NCBI RefSeq assembly: GCF_003018235.1
Contig: NZ_CP027437.1
Reading direction: 5' to 3' (one strand)
Source of the DNA: Escherichia coli
Lineage (GTDB): Bacteria; Pseudomonadota; Gammaproteobacteria; Enterobacterales; Enterobacteriaceae
Length of the DNA stretch: 64,000 bases
Shown: positions 1 through 37,728 of the stretch, piece after piece
How the letters are laid out: every line of letters starts with the position of its first letter
How positions within the stretch are numbered: the stretch's first letter is position 1
Made by a program: the position numbers and the translations under genes
Notes under the pieces: model-generated
What the model was told of the DNA's origin: nothing
What the model saw: only the letters and a program-made list of their open reading frames with translations
Database searches by the model: none

Positions 1-324
<324 letters not shown>

Positions 325-1194
325 TTACCGCTTTCTCGAGTGTGCTTTCTGGTTGTCAAACCAGTGAAAATAACTGATCACGCCTTCGGCAATCGCTGTG
401 GCGATTTTCTGGCGAAATGCCGCCGTGCCTAACAGCCGCTCTTCTTCCGGATTGGTGATAAACGAGGTTTCCACCAGCACCGAAGGAACCGACGGCGATT
501 TCAACACCACAAACGCGGCTTGTTCGGTGTTGCGGCTGTGCAGTTTATGCACCGGCTTAATCTTTTTCAGAATATGCGAGCCGAGCGTCAGGCTGTTTTT
601 AATAGTATCGGTTTGCACCAGATCAAACAGCACTTGCTGCAATAGGTGATCCTTGTCAGTCGCCTTTTTACCGGCAACTTCATCGGCGCGGTTTTCGCGT
701 TCAGACAGGTATTTCGCCATTGCGCTACTTGCACCGCGGTTAGAGAGGGCAAATACCGAAGCACCGGCAGCTTTCGGGTTGGTAAAGCCGTCGGCATGAA
801 TTGACATAAACAGATCTGCGCCATGTTTATGGGCGATTTCAACGCGATCGTAAAGTGGGATAAACGTATCGCCAGAACGCGTTAAACGCGCATCAATCCC
901 ATGATTACGCAAAATGGAACGGACGTTTTTAGCAATCGCCAGCACCACATGTTTTTCTTTCGAACCGTTGCGTCCGATCGCTCCGGTATCAATCCCGCCG
1001 TGGCCTGGATCGAGAACAACGACACGTCTGCCGCCGCTTTTTTTTGCTTTCGGCTTGCTGTGTCCGTTGCTGGTTTTTAAAGGTTCGTCTTTGGCGATGG
1101 CTTGCGACATTCCTGACAACGTCAGGGCAGCCAAACCGGCTTTCAGCACCTGGCGGCGCGAAGTGAGTGTTTTTAGTGGTTTAAAAGTGCTCAT
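325..1194 (-). CDS. amiA: N-acetylmuramoyl-L-alanine amidase A (Tat signal, amidase_3 domain)
   Basis: 289-aa ORF; twin-arginine-like signal SRRQVLKAGLAAL; matches recalled AmiA; followed by hemF. Confidence 0.93.
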   Translation of the reverse strand: MSTFKPLKTLTSRRQVLKAGLAALTLSGMSQAIAKDEPLKTSNGHSKPKAKKSGGRRVVVLDPGHGGIDTGAIGRNGSKEKHVVLAIAKNVRSILRNHGIDARLTRSGDTFIPLYDRVEIAHKHGADLFMSIHADGFTNPKAAGASVFALSNRGASSAMAKYLSERENRADEVAGKKATDKDHLLQQVLFDLVQTDTIKNSLTLGSHILKKIKPVHKLHSRNTEQAAFVVLKSPSVPSVLVETSFITNPEEERLLGTAAFRQKIATAIAEGVISYFHWFDNQKAHSRKR

Positions 1195-1407
1195 ACGGCC
1201 TGAGTTGTAATAATAAAGTTCCAGATGTTATATCGTATCGCGTAATCCGTTACGACGGTTTGCTGTTGAGAATTGTTTTACTTTTCATTTCAATAGTTGA
1301 CAACTCCCCATTATGCCACTTTTTCAACCGATTTTCGTCAGATATTGGCTAATTCGACCGTTCACGCCATAATCAGCCTTTTAACCCGCAAAAAGGTAAC
1401 GAATACC

Positions 1408-1833
1408 ATGGAGATACGCGTATTTCGCCAGGAAGATTTCGAAGAGGTCATCACCCTTTGGGAGCGTTGCGACTTGCTGCGTCCGTGGAACGATCCGGAA
1501 ATGGACATCGAGCGTAAGATGAACCATGACGTCAGTTTGTTTCTGGTCGCTGAGGTAAACGGTGAAGTGGTCGGAACGGTGATGGGCGGTTATGACGGGC
1601 ATCGCGGGTCTGCTTATTATCTTGGTGTGCATCCAGAGTTTCGTGGGCGTGGGATTGCTAATGCGTTGCTTAATCGGTTGGAGAAAAAGCTGATTGCTCG
1701 CGGCTGCCCGAAAATTCACATCAACGTGCCGGAAGATAACGACATGGTGCTCGGAATGTATGAACGCCTGGGATATGAACACGCCGACGTGCTGAGTCTG
1801 GGTAAGCGTTTGATTGAAGATGAAGAGTACTGA
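1408..1833 (+). CDS. ypeA: GNAT family acetyltransferase
   Basis: ORF track 1297..1833; internal ATG at 1408 gives 141 aa starting [15 protein letters not shown]-12 length. Confidence 0.85.
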
Positions 1834-2269
1834 GTTTCATCCTGTCCATTATGATGCGCACGGTCGCCTGCGTTTACCCTTGCTCTTCTGGCTTGTGCTA
1901 TTGCTTCAGGCGCGAACCTGGGTGCTGTTTGTCATTGCCGGTGCGTCGCGCGAGCAGGGTACTGCGCTGCTAAATCTGTTTTATCCCGATCACGATAATT
2001 TCTGGCTGGGGTTGATTCCCGGCATTCCGGCGGTGCTGGCGTTTTTGCTGAGTGGTCGGCGGGCTTCATTTCCCCGTATCTGGCATGTGCTCTATTTTCT
2101 GTTGCTGTTGGCGCAGGTGGTTTTACTTTGCTGGCAACCGTGGCTGTGGCTGAACGGTGAATCCGTTAGCGGTATCGGGCTGGCGCTGGTAGTGGCGGAT
2201 ATTGTGGCGTTAATCTGGCTGCTGACCAATCGACGTTTACGCGCTTGTTTTAATGAAGAAAAAGAATAA
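1820..2269 (+). CDS. yfeZ: inner membrane protein YfeZ
   Basis: ORF track 1814..2269; hydrophobic; ATG at 1820 gives 149 aa; overlaps ypeA 3' end. Confidence 0.8.
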
Positions 2270-2270
2270 C

Positions 2271-2298
2271 GGCACTTTTTGGTGAATTTGCACTCCAA
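2271..2298 (+). promoter_or_regulatory. candidate sigma-E (RpoE) promoter for yfeY: GGCACTT - 16 bp - TCCAA
   Basis: Motif read directly; close to GGAACTT-N16-TCnAA; yfeY is a recalled RpoE regulon member. Confidence 0.45.
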
Positions 2299-2329
2299 GC
2301 AACGTTATTGAATAACCAAAGGAAGTGAC

Positions 2330-2905
2330 ATGAAATCGCTGCGTTTAATGTTATGCGCTATGCCGTTGATGCTGTCCGGCTGTTCCACGATGTCGTCAGT
2401 TAACTGGTCTGCCGCTAACCCGTGGAACTGGTTTGGGTCGTCCACCAAAGTGAGCGAGCAGGGCGTTGGTGAATTAACGGCGTCCACACCACTGCAAGAA
2501 CAAGCCATTGCCGATGCGCTTGATGGCGATTATCGCCTGCGCAGCGGAATGAAAACCGCGAACGGCAACGTGGTGCGCTTTTTTGAAGTGATGAAAGGCG
2601 ACAACGTGGCGATGGTGATTAACGGCGATCAGGGTACGATCAGCCGCATTGATGTGCTGGATAGCGATATTCCTGCTGACACCGGTGTTAAAATCGGTAC
2701 ACCGTTTAGCGACCTTTACAGCAAAGCATTTGGCAATTGCCAAAAAGCTGATGGTGATGATAATCGTGCCGTCGAATGTAAAGCCGAAGGCAGTCAACAT
2801 ATTAGCTACCAGTTCAGCGGGGAATGGAGTGGTCCTGAAGGGTTAATGCCTTCAGACGATACCCTGAAAAACTGGAAAGTCAGTAAAATTATCTGGCGGC
2901 GTTAA
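2330..2905 (+). CDS. yfeY: RpoE-regulated lipoprotein YfeY
   Basis: 191-aa ORF with lipobox LSGC after signal peptide. Confidence 0.88.
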   Translation: MKSLRLMLCAMPLMLSGCSTMSSVNWSAANPWNWFGSSTKVSEQGVGELTASTPLQEQAIADALDGDYRLRSGMKTANGNVVRFFEVMKGDNVAMVINGDQGTISRIDVLDSDIPADTGVKIGTPFSDLYSKAFGNCQKADGDDNRAVECKAEGSQHISYQFSGEWSGPEGLMPSDDTLKNWKVSKIIWRR

Positions 2906-2916
2906 TTTGCGTCTGA

Positions 2917-3900
<984 letters not shown>

Positions 3901-5265: not shown

Positions 5266-6690
<1,425 letters not shown>

Positions 6691-26386: not shown

Positions 26387-27151
26387 TCAGAAATTAAATT
26401 TGATGGAGTAGATTATTGCATCCTGGTAAAAATCTTCGCCCAGTTTGTCATCCGCATAACGATACTGAATCCCTGTGGTGATGTGTGAAGTTGCATTCCA
26501 CCAAAGTGCGACGGCACCGTTCAGACCTTCTTTGCCGCCATTACCTGCCGCGTAGGTGGCATCACGATCAAACTCGTACTCGTTCCAGTTGGTGAGGGTG
26601 AATTTCTCATTGCCCAGCATAAAGCTGTAACCTGCAACCCAACCGGCTACATAGCCGTTGTCGCCAGTGTAATAGGTTTGATCTGTATAACGCTTAGCAA
26701 AGAACGGTTTGAACCACCAACCGCTGCCGGTGAAATTGTAGCCGATCCCGTAAAGGAACATATCGTCATGGAAATTCACACGATTCGCAGAACCGTAGGT
26801 GCCATACGCATGCAAGTAGAGATTAAATCCGGTGTCACCCAGGTAAATACGGTTGGTATTTTTAAATGTATAACGCTGCTCGCTACCCGGTTTATCATGA
26901 CGATCATTATAAAAGTTTTCCCAGTCGAAGAACCCGTACATTTCTCCCCAACTAAAGTTAGCGCCGCCTTCCAGTTCCAGATATCCAAAATCATCTTTGT
27001 GTGATTTGGTCGACGATTTCTCAGTGGTTCTGCTAGTCCAGTCAAGATAATGAATACCTATATCAGCAAAACCGCCTTTAAATTCTGCATGGGATACTGC
27101 TGGTATCGCCAATACAGAAGAGAGTGTCAGAGTAAAAAGATGTTTTTTCAT
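26387..27151 (-). CDS. yfeN: outer-membrane beta-barrel protein YfeN
   Basis: 254-aa ORF with signal peptide, aromatic-rich, C-terminal F. Confidence 0.85.
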   Translation of the reverse strand: MKKHLFTLTLSSVLAIPAVSHAEFKGGFADIGIHYLDWTSRTTEKSSTKSHKDDFGYLELEGGANFSWGEMYGFFDWENFYNDRHDKPGSEQRYTFKNTNRIYLGDTGFNLYLHAYGTYGSANRVNFHDDMFLYGIGYNFTGSGWWFKPFFAKRYTDQTYYTGDNGYVAGWVAGYSFMLGNEKFTLTNWNEYEFDRDATYAAGNGGKEGLNGAVALWWNATSHITTGIQYRYADDKLGEDFYQDAIIYSIKFNF

Positions 27152-27399
27152 AGCATAATTCCCTATGCCGATCGTTATTAGTTGATTGCTTAATAAAAAG
27201 GTTGATTAAAAGCGGCATATTGTTAATGCAAGGGAAAGGAGAGTACCAATACAGTTTTTTCAGCCTATTAATAGTGAAAAAATATAAATATATCGATATC
27301 GAATAACTATCGGATACAAGAAAAAAGTGTATTGGTATGAGGTAGGGCAATCTCGTTATAAAAAGGCGTTAGATTCCACCCTACAAAAAAAGGATATAT

Positions 27400-28233
27400 A
27401 TGTCTCAGGCTCAGTTTTCTCATAACCCACTGTATTGCGTAGATATTATCAAGACTTATAAACCTGATTTCACGCCACGAGTGGCCTTTATTTTAGGTTC
27501 CGGGCTGGGCGCGCTGGCCGATCAGATTGAGAACGCGGTCGCAATTTCCTACGAAAAGCTGCCTGGGTTCCCGGTAAGTACCGTACACGGTCATGCGGGT
27601 GAGCTGGTGCTGGGTTATCTTCAGGGGGTGCCAGTGGCGTGCATGAAAGGTCGCGGACATTTCTACGAAGGTCGTGGGATGACCATCATGATGGATGCAA
27701 TCCGTACCTTTAAGTTGCTGGGCTGCGAGTTGCTGTTCTGCACCAATGCGGCTGGCTCACTGCGTCCTGAAGTGGGGGCCGGCAGTCTGGTCGCATTGAA
27801 AGATCACATCAACACCATGCCGGGAACGCCGATGGTGGGTCTTAATGATGAACGTCTTGGTGAGCGCTTCTTCTCGCTGGCGAATGCCTACGATGCGGAA
27901 TACCGCGCACTGTTACAAAAAGTGGCGAAAGAAGAGGGGTTCCCTCTGACGGAGGGCGTGTTCGTCTCGTATCCGGGTCCGAATTTCGAGACTGCGGCGG
28001 AAATTCGCATGATGCAAATTATTGGTGGGGATGTTGTTGGTATGTCTGTGGTGCCTGAGGTTATTTCTGCTCGCCATTGCGAACTTAAAGTCGTTGCGGT
28101 CTCTGCGATTACCAACATGGCGGAAGGTTTAAGCGATGTGAAATTGTCACATGCGCAAACGCTGGCGGCTGCGGAGCTCTCTAAGCAGAACTTCATCAAC
28201 CTTATTTGTGGCTTTCTGCGCAAAATTGCCTGA
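27400..28233 (+). CDS. xapA: xanthosine phosphorylase (PNP family)
   Basis: 277-aa ORF MSQAQFSHNPLYCVDIIKTYKPDF... Confidence 0.93.
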   Translation: MSQAQFSHNPLYCVDIIKTYKPDFTPRVAFILGSGLGALADQIENAVAISYEKLPGFPVSTVHGHAGELVLGYLQGVPVACMKGRGHFYEGRGMTIMMDAIRTFKLLGCELLFCTNAAGSLRPEVGAGSLVALKDHINTMPGTPMVGLNDERLGERFFSLANAYDAEYRALLQKVAKEEGFPLTEGVFVSYPGPNFETAAEIRMMQIIGGDVVGMSVVPEVISARHCELKVVAVSAITNMAEGLSDVKLSHAQTLAAAELSKQNFINLICGFLRKIA

Positions 28234-28292
28234 GAAAAACAATAAGAAACGGCCTCGCGGGTGAGGCCAAATGATGCGACAAGGAAACGATT

Positions 28293-29546
28293 ATGAGCAT
28301 CGCTTTGCGCTTAAAGGTAATGTCCTTTTTGCAATATTTTATCTGGGGGAGCTGGCTGGTTACCCTCGGTTCTTACATGATTAATACCCTTCATTTCACC
28401 GGCGCTAATGTTGGCATGGTTTACAGTTCCAAAGGGATCGCCGCGATTATTATGCCTGGTATAATGGGGATCATCGCAGACAAATGGCTGCGTGCAGAAC
28501 GTGCATACATGCTGTGTCACCTGGTGTGTGCAGGCGTACTTTTTTATGCGGCATCCGTAACTGATCCGGATATGATGTTTTGGGTGATGTTAGTCAATGC
28601 GATGGCGTTTATGCCGACTATTGCGTTATCGAACAGCGTCTCTTATTCCTGTCTTGCCCAGGCAGGGCTTGACTCGGTGACCGCTTTCCCGCCCATTCGC
28701 GTTTTTGGTACGGTGGGGTTCATTGTCGCCATGTGGGCAGTAAGCCTGCTGCATCTGGAATTGAGTAGTCTGCAGCTGTATATCGCGTCCGGTGCGTCAT
28801 TGCTGCTGTCGGCTTATGCGCTGACTTTGCCGAAGATTCCGGTTGCGGAGAAAAAAGCGACTACATCGCTTGCCAGCAAGCTGGGTCTGGATGCCTTCGT
28901 GCTGTTTAAAAATCCACGCATGGCTATCTTTTTCCTCTTCGCCATGATGCTGGGCGCGGTGCTGCAAATTACCAACGTTTTTGGCAACCCGTTCCTGCAT
29001 GATTTCGCCCGTAATCCTGAGTTTGCTGATAGCTTCGTGGTGAAATACCCGTCCATTTTACTGTCAGTTTCACAGATGGCTGAAGTCGGTTTCATTCTGA
29101 CGATACCGTTCTTTTTGAAGCGTTTCGGTATTAAAACCGTCATGCTGATGAGTATGGTGGCGTGGACGCTGCGCTTTGGCTTCTTCGCCTATGGCGATCC
29201 GTCAACAACCGGATTTATTTTGCTGCTGTCGATGATTGTTTATGGCTGTGCATTCGATTTCTTCAATATTTCTGGTTCGGTATTTGTCGAACAGGAAGTT
29301 GATTCCAGCATTCGTGCCAGCGCGCAGGGCCTTTTTATGACGATGGTAAATGGCGTCGGCGCATGGGTTGGCTCGATTCTGAGCGGTATGGCAGTGGATT
29401 ACTTCTCGGTGGATGGCGTAAAAGATTGGCATACCATTTGGCTGATGTTTGCAGGGTATGCTCTTTTCCTCGCAGTGATATTTTTCTTTGGGTTTAAATA
29501 TAACCATGACCCTGAAAAGATAACGCATCGTTCAGTTACACATTAA
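28293..29546 (+). CDS. xapB: xanthosine permease (nucleoside:H+ symporter family)
   Basis: 417-aa polytopic ORF downstream of xapA. Confidence 0.92.
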   Translation: MSIALRLKVMSFLQYFIWGSWLVTLGSYMINTLHFTGANVGMVYSSKGIAAIIMPGIMGIIADKWLRAERAYMLCHLVCAGVLFYAASVTDPDMMFWVMLVNAMAFMPTIALSNSVSYSCLAQAGLDSVTAFPPIRVFGTVGFIVAMWAVSLLHLELSSLQLYIASGASLLLSAYALTLPKIPVAEKKATTSLASKLGLDAFVLFKNPRMAIFFLFAMMLGAVLQITNVFGNPFLHDFARNPEFADSFVVKYPSILLSVSQMAEVGFILTIPFFLKRFGIKTVMLMSMVAWTLRFGFFAYGDPSTTGFILLLSMIVYGCAFDFFNISGSVFVEQEVDSSIRASAQGLFMTMVNGVGAWVGSILSGMAVDYFSVDGVKDWHTIWLMFAGYALFLAVIFFFGFKYNHDPEKITHRSVTH

Positions 29547-29598
29547 AAGGATTCGCAGCTCTGTTCCTTGGGGCTGCTTTTATGATAAAGGTTAATTA

Positions 29599-29757
29599 GT
29601 GAAAGATATTTTATTTTCTTCTGGCGTTGGTTTTGGCATTGGTGCTTTGTTTACAATCGTGCGCTTGCCTATTCCTGTACCAAATGTATTACCGGGTATA
29701 TTATCCATTGTGTTTATGTATGTCGGATATCTGGTGGTGAAATACTTTATGCCATGA
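29599..29757 (+). CDS. small hydrophobic protein (52 aa, GTG start), possibly XapX/DUF1427-like
   Basis: Manual translation: (M)KDILFSSGVGFGIGALFTIVRLPIPVPNVLPGILSIVFMYVGYLVVKYFMP-stop; AAGG 8 nt upstream; absent from ORF track (<60 aa, non-ATG). Confidence 0.45.
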   Translation: MKDILFSSGVGFGIGALFTIVRLPIPVPNVLPGILSIVFMYVGYLVVKYFMP

Positions 29758-29797
29758 TAATTTAATACGATGTATTTATTATATGGAGCACTTAATT

Positions 29798-30682
29798 ATG
29801 GAACGCGTATACAGAACAGATCTTAAGTTGCTCCGTTATTTTCTTGCCGTAGCGGAAGAGTTGCATTTTGGTCGCGCAGCAGCGCGTTTAAATATGTCTC
29901 AGCCTCCGCTCAGCATTCATATTAAAGAGCTGGAAAATCAACTCGGCACGCAGCTTTTTATTCGCCATTCGCGCAGCGTCGTACTGACACACGCGGGCAA
30001 AATCTTGATGGAAGAATCGCGTCGATTGCTGGTGAATGCAAATAATGTATTGGCTCGGGTTGAACAAATAGGTCGGGGAGAAGCAGGGCGGATTGAACTC
30101 GGGGTTGTGGGAACGGCAATGTGGGGACGGATGCGCCCGGTTATGCGGCGATTCCTCAGGGAAAATCCTAACGTTGACGTTCTTTTTCGCGAAAAGATGC
30201 CCGCGATGCAAATGGCCCTGCTGGAACGACGTGAACTCGATGCCGGAATCTGGAGAATGGCGACAGAACCACCGGCAGGTTTTACCAGCTTACGGTTGCA
30301 TGAATCGGCGTTTCTGGTGGCGATGCCTGAAGAGCATCATCTCTCATCATTTTCCACCGTTCCGCTGGAAGCGCTACGTGACGAGTATTTTGTTACAATG
30401 CCGCCCGTGTACACTGACTGGGATTTTTTGCAGCGAGTTTGCCAGCAGGTGGGATTTTCACCGATTGTTATTCGCGAAGTTAATGAACCGCAAACGGTAC
30501 TCGCCATGGTCAGTATGGGTATTGGTATCACATTGATAGCGGACAGCTACGCGCAGATGAACTGGCCCGGTGTCATATTCCGTCCGCTCAAAGAACGCAT
30601 CCCGGCAGACTTATATATTGTTTATGAAACGCAGCAGGTGACGCCCGCGCTGGTTAAACTGCTGGCGGCGTTGGCGCAGTAG
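29798..30682 (+). CDS. xapR: LysR-family activator of xapAB
   Basis: ORF track 29783..30682; ATG at 29798 gives 294 aa starting MERVYRTDLKLLRYF. Confidence 0.92.
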   Translation: MERVYRTDLKLLRYFLAVAEELHFGRAAARLNMSQPPLSIHIKELENQLGTQLFIRHSRSVVLTHAGKILMEESRRLLVNANNVLARVEQIGRGEAGRIELGVVGTAMWGRMRPVMRRFLRENPNVDVLFREKMPAMQMALLERRELDAGIWRMATEPPAGFTSLRLHESAFLVAMPEEHHLSSFSTVPLEALRDEYFVTMPPVYTDWDFLQRVCQQVGFSPIVIREVNEPQTVLAMVSMGIGITLIADSYAQMNWPGVIFRPLKERIPADLYIVYETQQVTPALVKLLAALAQ

Positions 30683-30713
30683 ATGAGAGGCACGGGAACG
30701 GCCGGACATAGTT

Positions 30714-30740
30714 GGTCTGATAAGCGAAGCGCATCAGGCA
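30714..30740. repeat. REP element
   Basis: GGTCTGATAAGCGAAGCGCATCAGGCA. Confidence 0.6.
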
Positions 30741-30761
30741 ATTTCGCAAATTGCAGATAGC

Positions 30762-30789
30762 AAAAAAGCGCCTTTAGGGCGCTTTTTTA
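30762..30789. terminator. bidirectional intrinsic terminator (tRNA operon and xapR)
   Basis: AAAAAAGCGCCTTTAGGGCGCTTTTTT. Confidence 0.75.
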
Positions 30790-30792
30790 CAT

Positions 30793-30868
30793 TGGTGGGT
30801 CGTGCAGGATTCGAACCTGCGACCAATTGATTAAAAGTCAACTGCTCTACCAACTGAGCTAACGACCC
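30793..30868 (-). tRNA. lysV: tRNA-Lys (anticodon UUU)
   Basis: Reverse complement reads GGGTCGTTAGCTCAGTTGGTAGAGCAGTTGACTTTTAATCAATTGGTCGCAGGTTCGAATCCTGCACGACCCACCA. Confidence 0.95.
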
Positions 30869-30872
30869 GAAG

Positions 30873-30948
30873 TGGTGGGTGATGACGGGATCGAACCGCC
30901 GACCCCCTCCTTGTAAGGGAGGTGCTCTCCCAGCTGAGCTAATCACCC
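30873..30948 (-). tRNA. valY: tRNA-Val (anticodon UAC)
   Basis: Reverse complement reads GGGTGATTAGCTCAGCTGGGAGAGCACCTCCCTTACAAGGAGGGGGTCGGCGGTTCGATCCCGTCATCACCCACCA. Confidence 0.95.
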
Positions 30949-30994
30949 ACTTCGGTACTTCACATTGCTACAAGAAATTTAGCTGGCGAGAAAG

Positions 30995-31070
30995 TGGTGG
31001 GTGATGACGGGATCGAACCGCCGACCCCCTCCTTGTAAGGGAGGTGCTCTCCCAGCTGAGCTAATCACCC
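30995..31070 (-). tRNA. valX: tRNA-Val (anticodon UAC)
   Basis: Identical 76-nt copy. Confidence 0.95.
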
Positions 31071-31114
31071 ACTTCTCAATTTCTTGCTACACGGCGGAGA
31101 CTACATAAAGTAGT

Positions 31115-31190
31115 TGGTGGGTGATGACGGGATCGAACCGCCGACCCCCTCCTTGTAAGGGAGGTGCTCTCCCAGCTGAGCTAATCACCC
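31115..31190 (-). tRNA. valU: tRNA-Val (anticodon UAC)
   Basis: Identical 76-nt copy; first in the operon. Confidence 0.95.
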
Positions 31191-31207
31191 CCGCTGTGTG
31201 GAGTCGC

Positions 31208-31235
31208 ATTATAGGGAGAGTTCAAAATGAGTCAA
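31208..31235 (-). promoter_or_regulatory. sigma-70 promoter of valU-valX-valY-lysV operon
   Basis: Minus strand: TTGACT - 16 bp - TATAAT followed by GC-rich discriminator GCGACTCC; AT-rich upstream. Confidence 0.6.
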
Positions 31236-31448
31236 CGCATTTTCTAAAGAAATTGTTCGTTCGTCGTAAATTTAAGCAAGATGATCGCAAAACAGACCGT
31301 GTTGCGCAATTTGTCAACGAAAACAATAATGCGTAAGGTTGCAACCCGAACTACATTGAGGAATCAGGCGGGAGTGATAGAATATCGCCCACTCAATTTT
31401 TCCAGGATTTGCCGGTTGTCGGCATCTTTCTAAACGTAAGGCCATTTC

Positions 31449-32864
31449 ATGAAAATCAAAACTCGCTTCGCGCCAAGCCCAACAGGCTATCTGCACGTTG
31501 GCGGCGCGCGTACTGCTCTTTACTCCTGGCTTTTTGCACGTAACCACGGCGGTGAGTTCGTGCTGCGTATTGAAGACACCGATCTTGAGCGTTCCACGCC
31601 GGAAGCTATCGAAGCCATTATGGATGGCATGAACTGGCTGAGCCTGGAGTGGGATGAAGGTCCGTACTACCAGACCAAACGTTTTGATCGCTACAACGCG
31701 GTGATCGATCAGATGCTGGAAGAGGGCACAGCTTATAAATGCTATTGCTCTAAAGAGCGCCTGGAAGCGCTGCGCGAAGAGCAAATGGCGAAAGGTGAGA
31801 AGCCGCGTTATGACGGTCGCTGCCGCCACAGCCATGAGCATCATGCTGATGATGAACCGTGCGTTGTACGTTTTGCTAACCCGCAGGAAGGTTCTGTTGT
31901 TTTTGACGATCAGATCCGTGGCCCGATTGAGTTCAGCAACCAGGAGCTGGATGATCTGATTATCCGTCGTACCGATGGTTCTCCAACCTATAACTTCTGT
32001 GTGGTGGTTGACGACTGGGATATGGAAATCACCCACGTTATCCGTGGCGAAGACCATATCAACAACACGCCACGCCAGATCAACATTCTTAAAGCACTGA
32101 AAGCGCCGGTACCGGTTTACGCGCACGTTTCTATGATCAACGGCGATGACGGCAAAAAACTGTCCAAACGTCACGGGGCGGTCAGCGTAATGCAGTATCG
32201 TGATGACGGTTATTTGCCAGAAGCACTGCTGAACTATCTGGTGCGTCTGGGCTGGTCCCACGGCGATCAGGAAATCTTCACTCGTGAAGAGATGATCAAA
32301 TACTTCACCCTGAATGCCGTCAGCAAATCTGCCAGTGCGTTCAACACCGACAAGCTGCTGTGGCTGAACCATCACTACATTAACGCGCTGCCGCCGGAGT
32401 ATGTTGCTACTCACTTACAGTGGCACATTGAGCAGGAAAATATCGATACCCGTAACGGCCCGCAGCTGGCTGATCTGGTGAAACTGCTGGGCGAACGCTG
32501 CAAGACGCTGAAAGAGATGGCACAGAGCTGCCGTTATTTCTACGAAGATTTTGCTGAGTTCGATGCCGACGCCGCGAAAAAACATCTGCGTCCGGTAGCG
32601 CGTCAGCCGCTGGAAGTAGTTCGTGACAAACTGGCCGCGATTACTGACTGGACCGCTGAAAACGTTCATCACGCTATTCAGGCGACGGCGGATGAGCTGG
32701 AAGTGGGTATGGGTAAAGTTGGTATGCCGCTGCGTGTCGCCGTAACCGGTGCGGGGCAGTCTCCGGCGCTGGATGTTACCGTTCACGCAATCGGTAAGAC
32801 CCGCAGTATCGAGCGTATCAACAAAGCGTTGGCTTTTATTGCTGAACGCGAAAATCAGCAGTAA
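31449..32864 (+). CDS. gltX: glutamyl-tRNA synthetase (HVGG = HIGH and KLSKR = KMSKS motifs)
   Basis: 471-aa ORF. Confidence 0.96.
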
Positions 32865-32887
32865 TTAGCGCATAAAAGATAAACGGC

Positions 32888-32921
32888 AGGAGAGATACCC
32901 CTGCCGTTTTTTATTTATTCT
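32888..32921. terminator. intrinsic terminator after gltX (overlaps yfeD stop)
   Basis: AAACGGCAGGAGAGATACCCCTGCCGTTTTTT. Confidence 0.6.
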
Positions 32922-33307
32922 GATTCATCTATGTCGAGACGAGCAAGGAAATTACGAATTCCTTCGCGTGACAAAAATTGCGCAACTTTTTCCTGCTCAC
33001 TGTGAGTCATGTTGTCTATTGCGCTGATGATTTGCCGATAAGCAGGAGTGCGAATCCCCGGTGCGTATTCGGCAAGGGGTTCTTCGGCTTCCAGAAGCAT
33101 CGGCGTGTTATGGAAGGCTGGCGTGTTCTGAATAAACTCGCAAACTTGCGTATCGACCAGAATAAGTCTGGCACGACCGCCTTTCACGCCAGGAAATTTT
33201 TCCGTTTTCCAGCCTTTTTCTCTGATCCAACGGTTAACAGTTTGTTTAGCCACACCGAGGCATTCAGCCAGTTCTTCGGTGGTCATTTTATTGCGTAATC
33301 TTTTCAT
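32915..33307 (-). CDS. yfeD: small HTH DNA-binding protein YfeD
   Basis: 130-aa ORF; paralog of the adjacent yfeC. Confidence 0.8.
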   Translation of the reverse strand: MKRLRNKMTTEELAECLGVAKQTVNRWIREKGWKTEKFPGVKGGRARLILVDTQVCEFIQNTPAFHNTPMLLEAEEPLAEYAPGIRTPAYRQIISAIDNMTHSEQEKVAQFLSREGIRNFLARLDIDESE

Positions 33308-33308
33308 A

Positions 33309-33653
33309 TTATTTGCTATCGCGAATCCCTAAGCGTTGTAATAATCCGATAATCCCTTCCCGCAGAAGCAAGGATGTAAACTGTTTTTGTTCAACTGGCG
33401 TCATCTCTTTCGCCAGTGTCACCAGCAACACTTCAAGCGGCGCATCACCAGACAGGGCAGGCGCTTCTCCCTGACCTTCTGGACGTTCAGCATTGCGAAT
33501 ATATTCACGAACCTGTTCATTGACGTGAACCAGTCGGGCTTTGCCACCCTGGACGCCTGGTTTTGGTGACGTTGTCCAGCCTTCCTTGCGTACCCATTTA
33601 TTAATGGTCTGGCGGCTATAGCCGGTCAGTCTGGCAAGTTCATCTGGCGTCAT
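33309..33653 (-). CDS. yfeC: small HTH DNA-binding protein YfeC
   Basis: ORF track 33309..33668; second ATG at 33653 gives 114 aa starting MTPDELARLTGYSRQTINKW; start at 33668 (119 aa) is possible. Confidence 0.75.
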   Translation of the reverse strand: MTPDELARLTGYSRQTINKWVRKEGWTTSPKPGVQGGKARLVHVNEQVREYIRNAERPEGQGEAPALSGDAPLEVLLVTLAKEMTPVEQKQFTSLLLREGIIGLLQRLGIRDSK

Positions 33654-33828
33654 CCTCTCCTTGAACATAACAATTCCCTGAATGTATGTGGGTCTATTAG
33701 TAGTTCATTTTATAACACCACTTTACAGGAAACCGTGACATGAATAACTACTGAATGCGAGCGGTTTTCCAAAATTGTTCATTTGCCTGATTTTTCAGCG
33801 ATTGAAACTACACGTTGCAATTTGCCGT

Positions 33829-33856
33829 TGACACATTCGGGCGGAATTCATATGAT
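33829..33856 (+). promoter_or_regulatory. sigma-70 promoter of alaX-alaW
   Basis: TTGACA - 16 bp - TATGAT then GC-rich discriminator, about 32 nt before the tRNA. Confidence 0.5.
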
Positions 33857-33888
33857 GCCGCCCGTCAACTCGACAAGCTTTACGTGAC

Positions 33889-33964
<76 letters not shown>

Positions 33965-34003
33965 AATTTTGCACCCAGCAAATTTGGTACGTAAACGCAT
34001 CGT

Positions 34004-34079
<76 letters not shown>

Positions 34080-34087
34080 AATTTCCA

Positions 34088-34113
34088 ACCCTCGCTGCAA
34101 AGCGGGGGTTTTT
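34088..34113 (+). terminator. intrinsic terminator after alaW
   Basis: CCCTCGCTGCAAAGCGGGGGTTTTTT. Confidence 0.65.
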
Positions 34114-34286
34114 TGTCTCTGCTTTTTGCCGCTTTTGTAATACAGTCTACGTCCGGGTTAGCGCCGCCTGGTGAAAGCATCATTGGATGAAAAATCGGCA
34201 ACAGGCTGGCCCCTGTTTGCTTCGCGATGCGAATAAACTTATTATTTGTGTGCCTGAAAACCCCGATCAGTGAGAGTAGTGTACTC

Positions 34287-36476
34287 ATGTTTGTGGAGCA
34301 TAACCTGATAAAAAATATCAAGATATTCACACTAGCGTTTACGCTCACCGTGGTACTTATTCAGCTATCCCGTTTTATTTCGCCACTTGCCATTATCCAT
34401 TCCAGTTATATCTTTCTGGCGTGGATGCCACTGTGCGTAATGCTGTCAATCTTGTTTATCTTTGGCTGGCGCGGTGTCGTTCCCGTTTTATGCGGGATGT
34501 TTTGCACCAATCTGTGGAACTTTCATCTCTCTTTTTTACAGACCGCGGTCATGCTCGGCAGCCAGACGTTTGTTGTGTTGTGTGCCTGCGCAATATTACG
34601 CTGGCAGCTGGGGACGCGTTGGCGTTATGGATTGACCAGCCGATATGTCTGGCAACGTCTTTTCTGGCTTGGTTTGGTGACGCCGATCGGCATCAAATGC
34701 AGCATGTATCTTGTGGGGAGCTTTTTTGATTTCCCGCTAAAGATATCCACCTTTTTCGGCGATGCGGATGCCATTTTCACAGTCGTTGATTTACTAAGCC
34801 TTTTCACCGCTGTGCTGATTTACAACATGCTTTTCTACTATCTCACTCGCATGATTGTAAGTCCCCACTTTGCGCAGATATTGTGGCGCAGGGATATCGC
34901 TCCGTCGTTGAGCAAAGAGAAACGCGCATTTACCTTAAGCTGGCTGGCAGCTCTTAGCGTGCTGCTACTTCTGATGTGCACACCGTATGAGAATGACTTT
35001 ATTGCCGGTTACCTGGTACCTGTTTTCTTCATTATCTTTACCCTCGGTGTCGGTAAGCTTCGCTATCCGTTTTTAAATCTCACCTGGGCTGTTTCAACGC
35101 TTTGCCTTCTGAATTACAACCAGAACTTTTTGCAAGGGGTACTAACCGAATATTCGCTGGCATTTATTCTCGCGGTGCTGATTTCCTTTAGCGTTTGCCT
35201 GCTCTATATGGTGCGCATTTATCATCGCAGTGAATGGCTTAATCGCCGCTGGCATTTGCAGGCGCTGACCGATCCGTTAACGCTCCTACCCAACTTTCGT
35301 GCGTTGGAGCAAGCGCCGGAGCAAGAGGCGGGCAAGAGTTTTTGCTGCCTGCGCATTGATAATCTTGAGTTTATGAGTCGTCATTACGGCTTAATGATGC
35401 GCGTTCACTGTATCCGCTCAATTTACCGTACGCTGCTGCCGTTGATGCAGGAAAACGAAAAGTTGTATCAATTGCCGGGTAGTGAACTGCTGTTAGTGCT
35501 GAGTGGACCGGAAACGGAAGGGCGACTCCAGCATATGGTTAACATCCTGAATAGTCGGCAAATTCACTGGAACAATACCGGGCTGGATATGGGCTATGGT
35601 GCTGCCTGGGGGCGTTTTGATGGAAATCAGGAAACCCTGCAACCCTTGTTGGGGCAGTTAAGCTGGCTGGCGGAGCAATCCTGCGCACATCACCATGTGC
35701 TGGCGCTGGATAGCAGAGAGGAGATGGTTTCCGGGCAGACCACTAAACAGGTGCTATTGCTGAATACCATTCGCACGGCGTTAGATCAGGGTGATTTGCT
35801 GCTCTACGCCCAGCCAATTCGCAACAAAGAGGGTGAAGGTTATGATGAGATCCTCGCGCGACTGAAATATGACGGTGGCATTATGACCCCGGATAAGTTT
35901 CTGCCCCTTATTGCTCAGTTTAACCTTAGCGCGCGTTTTGATTTGCAAGTGCTGGAATCCCTGTTGAAGTGGCTGGCAACACATCCTTGCGACAAAAAAG
36001 GCCCGCGCTTTTCAGTCAATTTAATGCCGCTCACGCTGCTGCAAAAGAATATTGCCGGGCGGATTATTCGTCTGTTTAAGCGTTATAACATCTCCCCGCA
36101 GGCGGTCATTCTTGAGATCACCGAGGAGCAGGCGTTTTCTAACGCAGAAAGCAGCATGTACAACATCGAGCAACTGCATAAGTTTGGTTTCCGGATTGCG
36201 ATTGATGACTTTGGCACCGGTTATGCCAACTACGAACGGTTAAAGCGTTTGCAGGCTGATATCATCAAAATTGATGGCGTCTTTGTGAAAGATATCGTCA
36301 CGAATACGCTGGATGCGATGATTGTGAGATCAATTACCGATCTGGCGAAAGCGAAGTCATTGAGTGTGGTCGCGGAGTTTGTCGAGACGCAACAGCAGCA
36401 GGCGCTATTGCATAAGCTCGGGGTGCAATATCTGCAAGGGTATTTGATTGGTCGCCCGCAGCCATTAGCTGATTAA
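34287..36476 (+). CDS. pdeA: c-di-GMP phosphodiesterase: N-terminal membrane sensor, degenerate GGDEF, EAL domain
   Basis: ORF track 34227..36476; ATG at 34287 gives 729 aa starting MFVEHNLIKNIKIF; DDFGTGYANYERL motif in C-terminal domain. Confidence 0.88.
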   Translation: MFVEHNLIKNIKIFTLAFTLTVVLIQLSRFISPLAIIHSSYIFLAWMPLCVMLSILFIFGWRGVVPVLCGMFCTNLWNFHLSFLQTAVMLGSQTFVVLCACAILRWQLGTRWRYGLTSRYVWQRLFWLGLVTPIGIKCSMYLVGSFFDFPLKISTFFGDADAIFTVVDLLSLFTAVLIYNMLFYYLTRMIVSPHFAQILWRRDIAPSLSKEKRAFTLSWLAALSVLLLLMCTPYENDFIAGYLVPVFFIIFTLGVGKLRYPFLNLTWAVSTLCLLNYNQNFLQGVLTEYSLAFILAVLISFSVCLLYMVRIYHRSEWLNRRWHLQALTDPLTLLPNFRALEQAPEQEAGKSFCCLRIDNLEFMSRHYGLMMRVHCIRSIYRTLLPLMQENEKLYQLPGSELLLVLSGPETEGRLQHMVNILNSRQIHWNNTGLDMGYGAAWGRFDGNQETLQPLLGQLSWLAEQSCAHHHVLALDSREEMVSGQTTKQVLLLNTIRTALDQGDLLLYAQPIRNKEGEGYDEILARLKYDGGIMTPDKFLPLIAQFNLSARFDLQVLESLLKWLATHPCDKKGPRFSVNLMPLTLLQKNIAGRIIRLFKRYNISPQAVILEITEEQAFSNAESSMYNIEQLHKFGFRIAIDDFGTGYANYERLKRLQADIIKIDGVFVKDIVTNTLDAMIVRSITDLAKAKSLSVVAEFVETQQQQALLHKLGVQYLQGYLIGRPQPLAD

Positions 36477-36483
36477 CAGGCGT

Positions 36484-36516
36484 AAAAAAGCCGGGGAATG
36501 ATCCCCGGCTTTTTTA
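36484..36516. terminator. bidirectional intrinsic terminator between convergent pdeA and nupC
   Basis: AAAAAAGCCGGGGAATGATCCCCGGCTTTTTT. Confidence 0.75.
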
Positions 36517-36525
36517 TGTATGGTT

Positions 36526-37728
36526 TTACAGCACCAGTGCTGCGATTGACGCAGACAGCACACTCACCAGGGTAGAGCCGTAAACCAGTTTCAGACCGAA
36601 GCGAGAAACCACGTTACCTTGCTCTTCATTCAGGCCTTTAACTGCACCGGCGATAATCCCGATTGAAGAGAAGTTAGCGAAGGAAACCAGGAACACAGAG
36701 ATGATGCCTTCAGCACGCGGAGAGAGTGTAGAGGCAATTTTCTGCAGATCCATCATCGCAACGAACTCGTTGGAAACCAGTTTGGTCGCCATGATACTGC
36801 CCACTTGCAGTGCTTCACTGGAAGGAACACCCATCACCCATGCAATCGGATAGAAGATGTAGCCCAGGATGCCCTGGAAGGAGATGCTGTAGCCAAACCA
36901 GCCAGTAACGGTGGCAAACAGTGCGTTCAGCGCGGCGATCAGGGCGATAAAGCCGATCAGCATCGCGGCAACGATAATGGCAACTTTGAAACCTGCCAGA
37001 ATGTATTCACCCAGCATTTCGAAGAAGCTCTGACCTTCGTGCAGGTTGGACATCTGGATGTTTTCTTCACTGGCATCAACACGGTAAGGGTTGATCAGCG
37101 ACAGCACGATAAAGGTGCTGAACATGTTCAGTACCAGTGCCGCAACGACGTATTTCGGTTCCAGCATGGTCATGTATGCACCAACGATGGACATCGACAC
37201 GGTGGACATCGCCGTGGCAGCCATGGTGTACATGCGATTGCGGGAGATTTTGCCGAGGATATCTTTATAGGCAATAAAGTTTTCAGACTGACCCAGAATC
37301 AGGGAGCTGACGGCGTTAAAGGATTCCAGTTTGCCCATGCCGTTGACTTTGGAGAGCAGGAAACCAATTGCGCGGATAATCACCGGCAACACGCGAATGT
37401 GCTGGAGAATACCGATCAGTGCAGAGATAAAGACGATTGGGCACAGCACTTTCAGGAAGAAGAATGCCAGGCCTTGATCATTCATGCTACCAAAGACGAA
37501 GTTAGTCCCTTCGTTGGCAAATCCGAGCAGTTTTTCAAACATTTCGGAGAAGCCTTTCACGAAGCCTAAACCAACGTCGGAGTTCAGGAAGAACCACGCC
37601 AGTAACACTTCGATAACAAGCAGTTGAATAACATAACGGATACGAATTTTTTTGCGGTCGCTGCTTACCAGCAGTGCGAGAATCGCAACAACGGCAAGTG
37701 CCAGTACAAAATGAAGGACGCGGTCCAT
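36526..37728 (-). CDS. nupC: nucleoside:H+ symporter (CNT family)
   Basis: ORF track 36526..37767; ATG at 37728 gives 400 aa starting [20 protein letters not shown]. Confidence 0.92.

Follow-up and report, generated by a model that had tools for sequence, protein, structure and literature searches.

The locus described here, in which three copies of a tRNA-Val gene are followed closely by a tRNA-Lys gene, raises the question of which operon it is, how its transcription begins and ends, and whether an array built from such repeats keeps the same number of genes from strain to strain. A preliminary description, prepared from the sequence alone, had proposed three identical tRNA-Val copies and a tRNA-Lys in one operon. 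Within the 64-kb window (the whole 64,000-nt stretch of Escherichia coli DNA that was analyzed), ARAGORN calls one tRNA-Lys(ttt) and three tRNA-Val(tac) on the minus strand. The same four genes, for which no strand had been given before, are found by the Rfam model RF00005 with scores of 79.2 bits for tRNA-Lys and 65.9 bits for each tRNA-Val, relative to a gathering score of 29. Direct sequence comparison confirms that the three tRNA-Val(UAC) genes are byte-identical 76-mers. The spacer sizes proposed originally, 46 and 44 nt, are also right, but they follow the plus strand; in the order of transcription the spacers are 44 nt (31114..31071), 46 nt (30994..30949), and finally the tetranucleotide CTTC (30872..30869), such that tRNA-Lys indeed begins 4 nt beyond the last tRNA-Val. 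The range 30793-31235 begins precisely at the 3′ end of lysV and closes with the -35 hexamer of the promoter, and the terminator at 30762-30788 lies outside it.

A 1.3-kb query encompassing the locus has matches in 5,425 of 5,426 complete E. coli genomes, wherein the annotated features beneath the match are xapR, tRNA-Lys, three tRNA-Val, and gltX. The open reading frames that flank the array in the window are gltX (31449-32864) and xapR (29783-30682), whose homologues of at least 99% identity carry those annotations. The operon is divergent from gltX, which is approximately 258 nt away, and convergent with xapR. The locus is the chromosomal valU-valX-valY-lysV operon of E. coli, an assignment to which we give a probability of about 0.97. 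The literature already describes this operon, including its promoter region, the processing of its transcript, and the fact that it is dispensable. Its features, and the repeat element next to it, are as follows.

31230..31235, minus strand: -35 hexamer TTGACT of the valU promoter (promoter scan; 87 of the 87 cross-species matches listed)
31214..31229, minus strand: 16-nt promoter spacer, fixed in length and variable in sequence between species
31208..31213, minus strand: -10 hexamer TATAAT (promoter scan and cross-species matches)
31200..31207, minus strand: discriminator GCGACTCC, 75% G+C, the same in 85 of the 87 promoters listed
31191..31199, minus strand: 9-nt 5′ leader ACACAGCGG, with a predicted start A at 31199 by reference to K-12
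31115..31190, minus strand: valU, tRNA-Val(UAC) copy 1 (ARAGORN, Rfam, K-12 annotation)
31071..31114, minus strand: spacer 1, 44 nt, orthologous to the first spacer in other genera
30995..31070, minus strand: valX, tRNA-Val(UAC) copy 2 (ARAGORN, Rfam, K-12 annotation)
30949..30994, minus strand: spacer 2, 46 nt, departing from K-12 at 30967-30968
30873..30948, minus strand: valY, tRNA-Val(UAC) copy 3 (ARAGORN, Rfam, K-12 annotation)
30869..30872, minus strand: CTTC junction between valY and lysV, CUUC in K-12 (PMC4176162)
30793..30868, minus strand: lysV, tRNA-Lys(UUU) (ARAGORN, Rfam, K-12 annotation)
30762..30788, both strands: symmetric terminator hairpin composed of A6, GCGCC, a loop, GGCGC, and T6 (folding)
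30714..30739, minus strand: REP element GCCTGATGCGCTTCGCTTATCAGACC, past the xapR stop codon and before the terminator, outside the operon and given for context

The equivalent genes of K-12 MG1655 are valU (b2401), valX (b2402), valY (b2403), and lysV (b2404), which occur in the same order, again with 44/46/4 spacing. No differences separate the two strains in the tRNAs, the leader, the promoter, or spacer 1, and the first terminator is likewise the same. Spacer 2 has two substitutions (30967-30968), and a further three fall between gltX and valU. The neighborhood is also shared, with gltX located 258 nt upstream in divergent orientation and xapR convergent, whereas a 156-nt RtT-like element and a second terminator copy between lysV and xapR are present in K-12 only. 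When positions 27000-37000 of the window were compared with the 5,426 complete E. coli RefSeq genomes, the top identity was 99.2%. This value over 10 kb indicates that the source lineage is without a close representative among those genomes; it may be an uncommon E. coli lineage or a Shigella.

Transcription of valU in K-12 starts 9 nt upstream of the mature 5′ end, and the full-length transcript is approximately 438 nt (Agrawal, Mohanty and Kushner, PMC4176162). Because the window matches K-12 throughout the promoter and leader, this start site maps to the A at 31199, and the distance from this nucleotide to the end of the T-run at 30762 is exactly 438 nt. Processing in K-12 begins when RNase P removes the Rho-independent terminator by cutting 2-3 nt past the lysV CCA, after which the pre-tRNAs are freed singly by RNase P in the 3′-to-5′ direction (PMC4176162). 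If both the start site and this pathway carry over from K-12 to the present strain, as the sequence suggests, then a single sigma-70 promoter would direct minus-strand transcription from 31199 to yield a 438-nt primary transcript that includes three tRNA-Val(UAC) and one tRNA-Lys(UUU) and ends at the hairpin at 30788..30762. RNase P would then cut off the terminator and remove the 5′ leader, and exonucleases would trim the 3′ ends, as published for K-12. The K-12 operon can be deleted; valUXY-lysV is dispensable and is no substitute for the lysT operon (PMC11480407).

The preliminary description had also suggested that the number of tRNA-Val copies may vary between strains. Identical 76-nt repeats located 120-122 nt apart could misalign during replication or recombination and thereby give rise to alleles with one, two, or four copies. 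Since the repeats are identical, the tRNA genes themselves retain no trace of a gained or lost copy, but new spacer-gene-spacer junctions are created. The census consisted of five queries, each representing a noncanonical junction, that were compared with the 5,426 complete E. coli genomes. A match was counted when it covered at least 80% of the query, a threshold that the canonical array, which reaches only 73-77%, does not attain. The junctions and the genomes that carry them are listed here.

spacer1-Val-CTTC-Lys: two copies, spacer 2 lost; 214 genomes
leader-Val-spacer2: two copies with loss of spacer 1, together with arrays whose spacers are all spacer 2; 133 genomes
spacer2-Val-spacer2: four copies; 79 genomes
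spacer1-Val-spacer1: four copies; 70 genomes
leader-Val-CTTC-Lys: one Val before the first Lys; 26 genomes

Copy number indeed varies, and complete E. coli genomes include arrays with one, two, and four tRNA-Val genes. The genomes that depart from three copies total approximately 400-520, or 7-10% of the 5,426, and this total is given as a range because a genome may fall into more than one junction class and because there is noise in a few assemblies (for example, XL1-Blue and Stbl4 give two-piece matches to the spacer2-Val-spacer2 query); it counts genomes rather than independent events. The canonical three copies are present in at least 90%. Gain and loss of copies in tandem tRNA arrays are not surprising, and yet those who estimate tRNA supply from the number of tRNA genes should be aware that about 7-10% of complete E. 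coli genomes depart from three Val copies here.

Several variant arrays were read at the sequence level. Two copies are present in records L001 and L006, where spacer 1 is kept, and in L005, where spacer 2 is kept. Four copies are present in L002 and in L008, the latter with three identical spacer-2 units. L132 carries a single copy, and L007 has the order Val-Lys-(51 nt)-Val-Lys. Among K-12 derivatives, MG1655 has three Val copies, JW5437-1 has two, and TG1 has one. This distribution suggests that copy changes occur on laboratory time scales, unless some of these differences are assembly errors, and K-12 laboratory derivatives are not interchangeable in Val copy number.

Inspection of the records clarified several individual matches. 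The two-piece matches of odd span to the leader-Val-spacer2 query are real two-copy arrays that keep spacer 2, as the sequence of L005 demonstrates. The leader-Val-CTTC-Lys junction does not always denote a single-copy array, since L007 is a Val-Lys-Val-Lys chimera that includes a spacer of the lysT operon. A four-copy record labeled DH5alpha could not be taken as a K-12 derivative given its FlxA-like neighbor, which is not K-12-like, and the record was left out. As a separate observation, the promoter-proximal Val gene of the four-copy strain 99-3311 (L002 3365-3440) departs from its sister copies in having G instead of T at position 4 and A instead of C at position 61, and this divergent gene could be a decaying extra copy or a sequencing error.

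For comparison between species, species-representative genomes were scanned with the Val-NNNN-Lys junction, which yielded at least 120 loci from Enterobacteriaceae and Erwiniaceae. Linkage of the Val/Lys array to gltX is conserved in 79 species among the matches listed. When these 79 listed arrays are counted once per species, 62 have three Val copies, eight have one, seven have two, and one each has four and five, in a sample where draft genomes could have collapsed repeats. Among the arrays listed, first spacers share a median of 75% identity with spacer 1 of E. coli and second spacers a median of 74% with its spacer 2, whereas cross-comparisons give 52-54%. The two spacers of any one genome are about 53% alike among the arrays listed, and 59% in the window. 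The fact that the spacers are orthologous by position across genera indicates that the layout of three copies and two spacers is ancestral, rather than repeatedly rebuilt. This comparison suggests that the array would have been present in the ancestor of Enterobacteriaceae and Erwiniaceae and would have been kept by selection since.

The tRNA-Val genes of a single array are identical to each other in 50 of the 71 arrays listed. In Pantoea and Erwinia, the 4-6 positions at which Val genes depart from the E. coli sequence are common to all copies. This homogeneity within arrays is consistent with concerted evolution acting on top of purifying selection, wherein gene conversion together with purifying selection would keep the copies alike. 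The homogeneity has its exceptions, in that the first Val copy is off by one nucleotide in several Citrobacter and Klebsiella species.

Two larger arrays were also encountered. Intestinirhabdus alba (L083 7542-8171) has five Val copies separated by spacers of 44, 41, 44, and 41 nt, an arrangement corresponding to a two-unit duplication, and Rosenbergiella nectarea (L086 2685-3178) has four Val copies whose first two spacers are identical. In both arrays, the signature of recent unequal exchange is visible.

Could the variant arrays in E. coli be mostly artefacts of assembly, in which repeats of 122 nt have been collapsed or expanded, while real strains essentially always have three copies? Certain assemblies are indeed noisy with indels, and two-piece matches of odd span were obtained for XL1-Blue, Stbl4, BL21(RP), and Origami2; the non-K-12 neighborhood of the four-copy record labeled DH5alpha further demonstrates that labels can err. 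Nevertheless, the variant junctions are clean and comprise exact spacer sequences, and variant types are shared within clones, as with the cattle strains 117-141, all of which have the spacer-1 duplication, and the O145:H28 strains, which share the spacer-2 duplication. Like variation exists between species. Moreover, the identical stretch is only 76-81 nt, which is below ordinary read length and, with flanking spacers that are unlike each other, is easily assembled. We therefore find it very doubtful that artefacts account for most of the variants. A related concern is whether the copies in the window are identical simply through recent duplication in this lineage, and not through homogenization of an old array. 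Such duplications do exist, as illustrated by L008, by the two identical first spacers in L086, and by the 44/41 repeat in L083. However, the spacers of the window are only 59% identical to each other, whereas spacers compared by position are 83-100% identical in the Citrobacter, Klebsiella, and Salmonella examples; in Pantoea and Erwinia the positional identity is weaker, about 61-67%, against about 52-54% for cross-comparisons. Positional orthology of this kind implies that the three-copy layout predates the split of Citrobacter, Klebsiella, Salmonella, Pantoea, and Erwinia, and we give recent duplication almost no credence relative to an old array whose copies are kept alike.

It is conceivable that the polymorphism from one to four copies serves as a rapidly reversible control of tRNA-Val(UAC) dosage that is selected by niche or laboratory regime. 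On this proposal, repeated losses might be favored in slow-growth or laboratory lineages (e.g., TG1, J53, and JW5437-1) and gains in some pathogenic clones (e.g., O145:H28 and an O157 cattle clade). We consider this proposal quite unlikely.

A close counterpart of the valU operon within E. coli is the lysT operon, which encodes the same two tRNA species with very short Val-Lys junctions, has a terminator of identical sequence, and undergoes RNase P-dependent processing in the 3′-to-5′ direction (PMC4176162). Unlike the valU operon, lysT is Lys-rich and adjoins cpoB, and in K-12 it is essential and not replaceable by valUXY-lysV (PMC11480407). In the stretch that was read from the lysT operon of O157:H7 strain PV15-279 (L129 625-1237), the order is Lys-Val-Lys-Lys-Lys, and the stretch itself ends soon after the fifth gene. 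Thus the gene number of the lysT operon, which is seven in K-12, may vary between strains too. The two operons also meet in strain 118UI, whose valU locus (L007 447-809) reads Val-CTTC-Lys-(51 nt)-Val-CTTC-Lys. Its 51-nt spacer is the one that separates Lys from Val in the lysT operon beside cpoB (L129 625-906). This spacer occurs at 5,342 places in 5,331 records, and hence about 11 genomes carry two. From its sequence, the 118UI array looks like a product of gene conversion between the two Val/Lys operons.

The promoter had been proposed to consist of near-consensus hexamers, TTGACT-16-TATAAT, with a GC-rich discriminator, and the promoter scan agrees. The hexamers TTGACT (31235..31230) and TATAAT (31213..31208), separated by 16 nt, match the consensus at 11 of 12 positions, and the discriminator is 75% G+C. 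Sites this good are expected by chance approximately 0.85 times per 64-kb window, but only about 3e-4 times within the 50 nt that precede the first tRNA. The matches listed comprise 87 promoters from about 80 species of Enterobacterales; every one has TTGACT-N16-TATAAT, 85 have the discriminator GCGACTCC, and 83 have the leader ACACAGCGG. The middle of the 16-nt promoter spacer varies freely across these species, and its length is 16 in every one of the 87 listed. Further upstream, GAAAA at about -45..-41 is conserved across species as part of the A-tract AGAAAAT at -46..-40, and a block at -76..-52 is partly conserved (among the matches listed). The comparison thereby provides a footprint of the promoter as a by-product, in which the hexamers, the 16-bp spacing, the discriminator, and the 9-nt leader show hardly any variation across Enterobacteriaceae and Erwiniaceae. 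Given that the discriminator is upstream of the start site measured in K-12, its conservation must act on DNA and not on RNA, which points to promoter kinetics as the property that would be maintained.

The model for promoters sensitive to ppGpp and DksA is rrnB P1, which has a 16-bp spacer, the sequence TATAAT-GCG, a C at discriminator position 2, and transcription beginning 9 nt beyond the -10 hexamer. A 16-bp separation between hexamers is sub-optimal. The valU promoter resembles rrnB P1 in its 16-bp spacer, its TATAAT hexamer, its G+C-rich 8-nt discriminator beginning with GCG, and its start 9 nt past the -10 hexamer, and immediately ahead of its -35 hexamer it carries a stretch rich in A. 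Its -35 hexamer TTGACT is nearer to consensus than that of rrnB P1. On the basis of the 16-bp spacer, the G+C-rich 8-nt discriminator, the start 9 nt from the -10 hexamer, and the A-tract, all of them features of stable-RNA promoters under growth-rate and stringent control, the valU promoter most likely responds to ppGpp/DksA and to FIS. The label "stringent-type" that had been attached to this promoter is therefore apt as a prediction, one that is well supported by sequence and cross-species conservation. The title of Champagne and Lapointe (1998), as cited in PMC1183518, places FIS at the divergent gltX/valU promoters.

At the other end of the operon, the terminator has the sequence AAAAAAGCGCC-CTAAA-GGCGCTTTTTT (30788..30762). 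The predicted folding energy of its hairpin is -19.1 kcal/mol for the minus strand (z = -6.6) and -15.6 kcal/mol for the plus strand (z = -4.0). The A6 and T6 flanks provide a U-run after the hairpin in both directions, and the plus-strand version comprises a 12-pair stem followed by six U residues. A scan of the window for consensus terminators did not report the hairpin past lysV, probably because pairing between the A6 and T6 arms leaves no free T-run to be recognized. Termination in the valU direction has been demonstrated in K-12, where the hairpin ends the 438-nt transcript (PMC4176162). The hairpin begins 80 nt past the stop codon of xapR (30682), and between them resides a REP element, the only match to the REP-type pattern in the window (30714-30739, minus strand; none in 100 shuffles). 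No further terminator-like site was found from the xapR stop codon to lysV. By its sequence, the hairpin thus fits the bidirectional terminator of the preliminary description. The accompanying notion that it is shared with xapR does not hold in general, because only some strains have that arrangement. In approximately 2,184 of the 5,425 E. coli genomes (about 40%), homology ends just past the hairpin and xapR is not adjacent.

The functions assigned to these two control elements each have a competitor. For the promoter, it is the proposal of a strong, constitutive sigma-70 promoter whose conserved G+C-rich discriminator serves another purpose. The conservation of the discriminator in 85 of 87 promoters runs counter to this proposal, since a sequence upstream of the start cannot be maintained by RNA processing, as does the invariance of the 16-bp spacing even though the spacer sequence is free to vary. 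The match of TATAAT-GCG, the C at discriminator position 2, and the start 9 nt downstream to rrnB P1 also speaks against it. What speaks for it is that near-consensus hexamers alone predict a stable open complex and that a literature search found no direct evidence of control of valU by ppGpp/DksA. On these grounds we judge constitutive expression to be fairly unlikely and retain a response to ppGpp/DksA and FIS as the probable mode of control. The competing view of the terminator, in which the hairpin ends the transcripts of the tRNA operon only and those of xapR end at the REP element, by Rho, or through read-through, deserves more weight. The xapR stop codon is separated from the hairpin by 80 nt and the REP element, the fold on the plus strand is weaker (-15.6 versus -19.1 kcal/mol), and some 40% of genomes keep the hairpin without xapR, which signifies that its conservation is independent of this gene. 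The plus-strand structure nevertheless presents a 12-pair stem and six U residues, and the interval from the xapR stop codon to lysV contains no alternative terminator-like site. We regard a terminator for the tRNA operon only as possible, if somewhat doubtful, and bidirectional termination as the preferred reading for strains arranged like the window.

The region beyond the hairpin differs among strains in other ways. In genomes without an adjacent xapR (window 29783-30753 compared with L004, L002, and L007), a flxA-like gene and yfeR replace xapR and xapB. A mobile element at tRNA-Lys was considered as the cause of these alternatives. In about half of the E. coli genomes sampled, among them K-12, the lysV terminator is followed by a 156-nt unit annotated as RtT sRNA (L003 1894-2019; L130, K-12, between lysV and xapR), for which the insertion point corresponds to approximately 30738-30752 of the window. 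The end of this RtT-like unit repeats the final ~19 nt of lysV along with the terminator. Strains that carry the unit have two terminator copies, one facing the tRNA operon and the other facing xapR. The unit is similar to the tyrT-rtT repeats (Rfam RtT RNA), in that a tRNA end and a terminator are repeated after lysV in these other E. coli strains. An Rfam search and the alignment to K-12 found no RtT element in the window.

Other features were observed on the far side of gltX. Two byte-identical tandem tRNA-Ala(GGC) genes separated by a 39-nt spacer are present on the plus strand of the window (33889-33964 and 34004-34079), at the position of K-12 alaX/alaW beyond gltX, yfeD, and yfeC. Genomes of the O157:H7 type (L004 5236-6877; L002 5226-6872) carry a decayed IS200/IS605 tnpA and an intact TnpB between gltX and yfeD. 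The window is without this IS200/IS605 insertion; there, gltX ends at 32864 and a yfeD-like open reading frame occupies 32915-33307.
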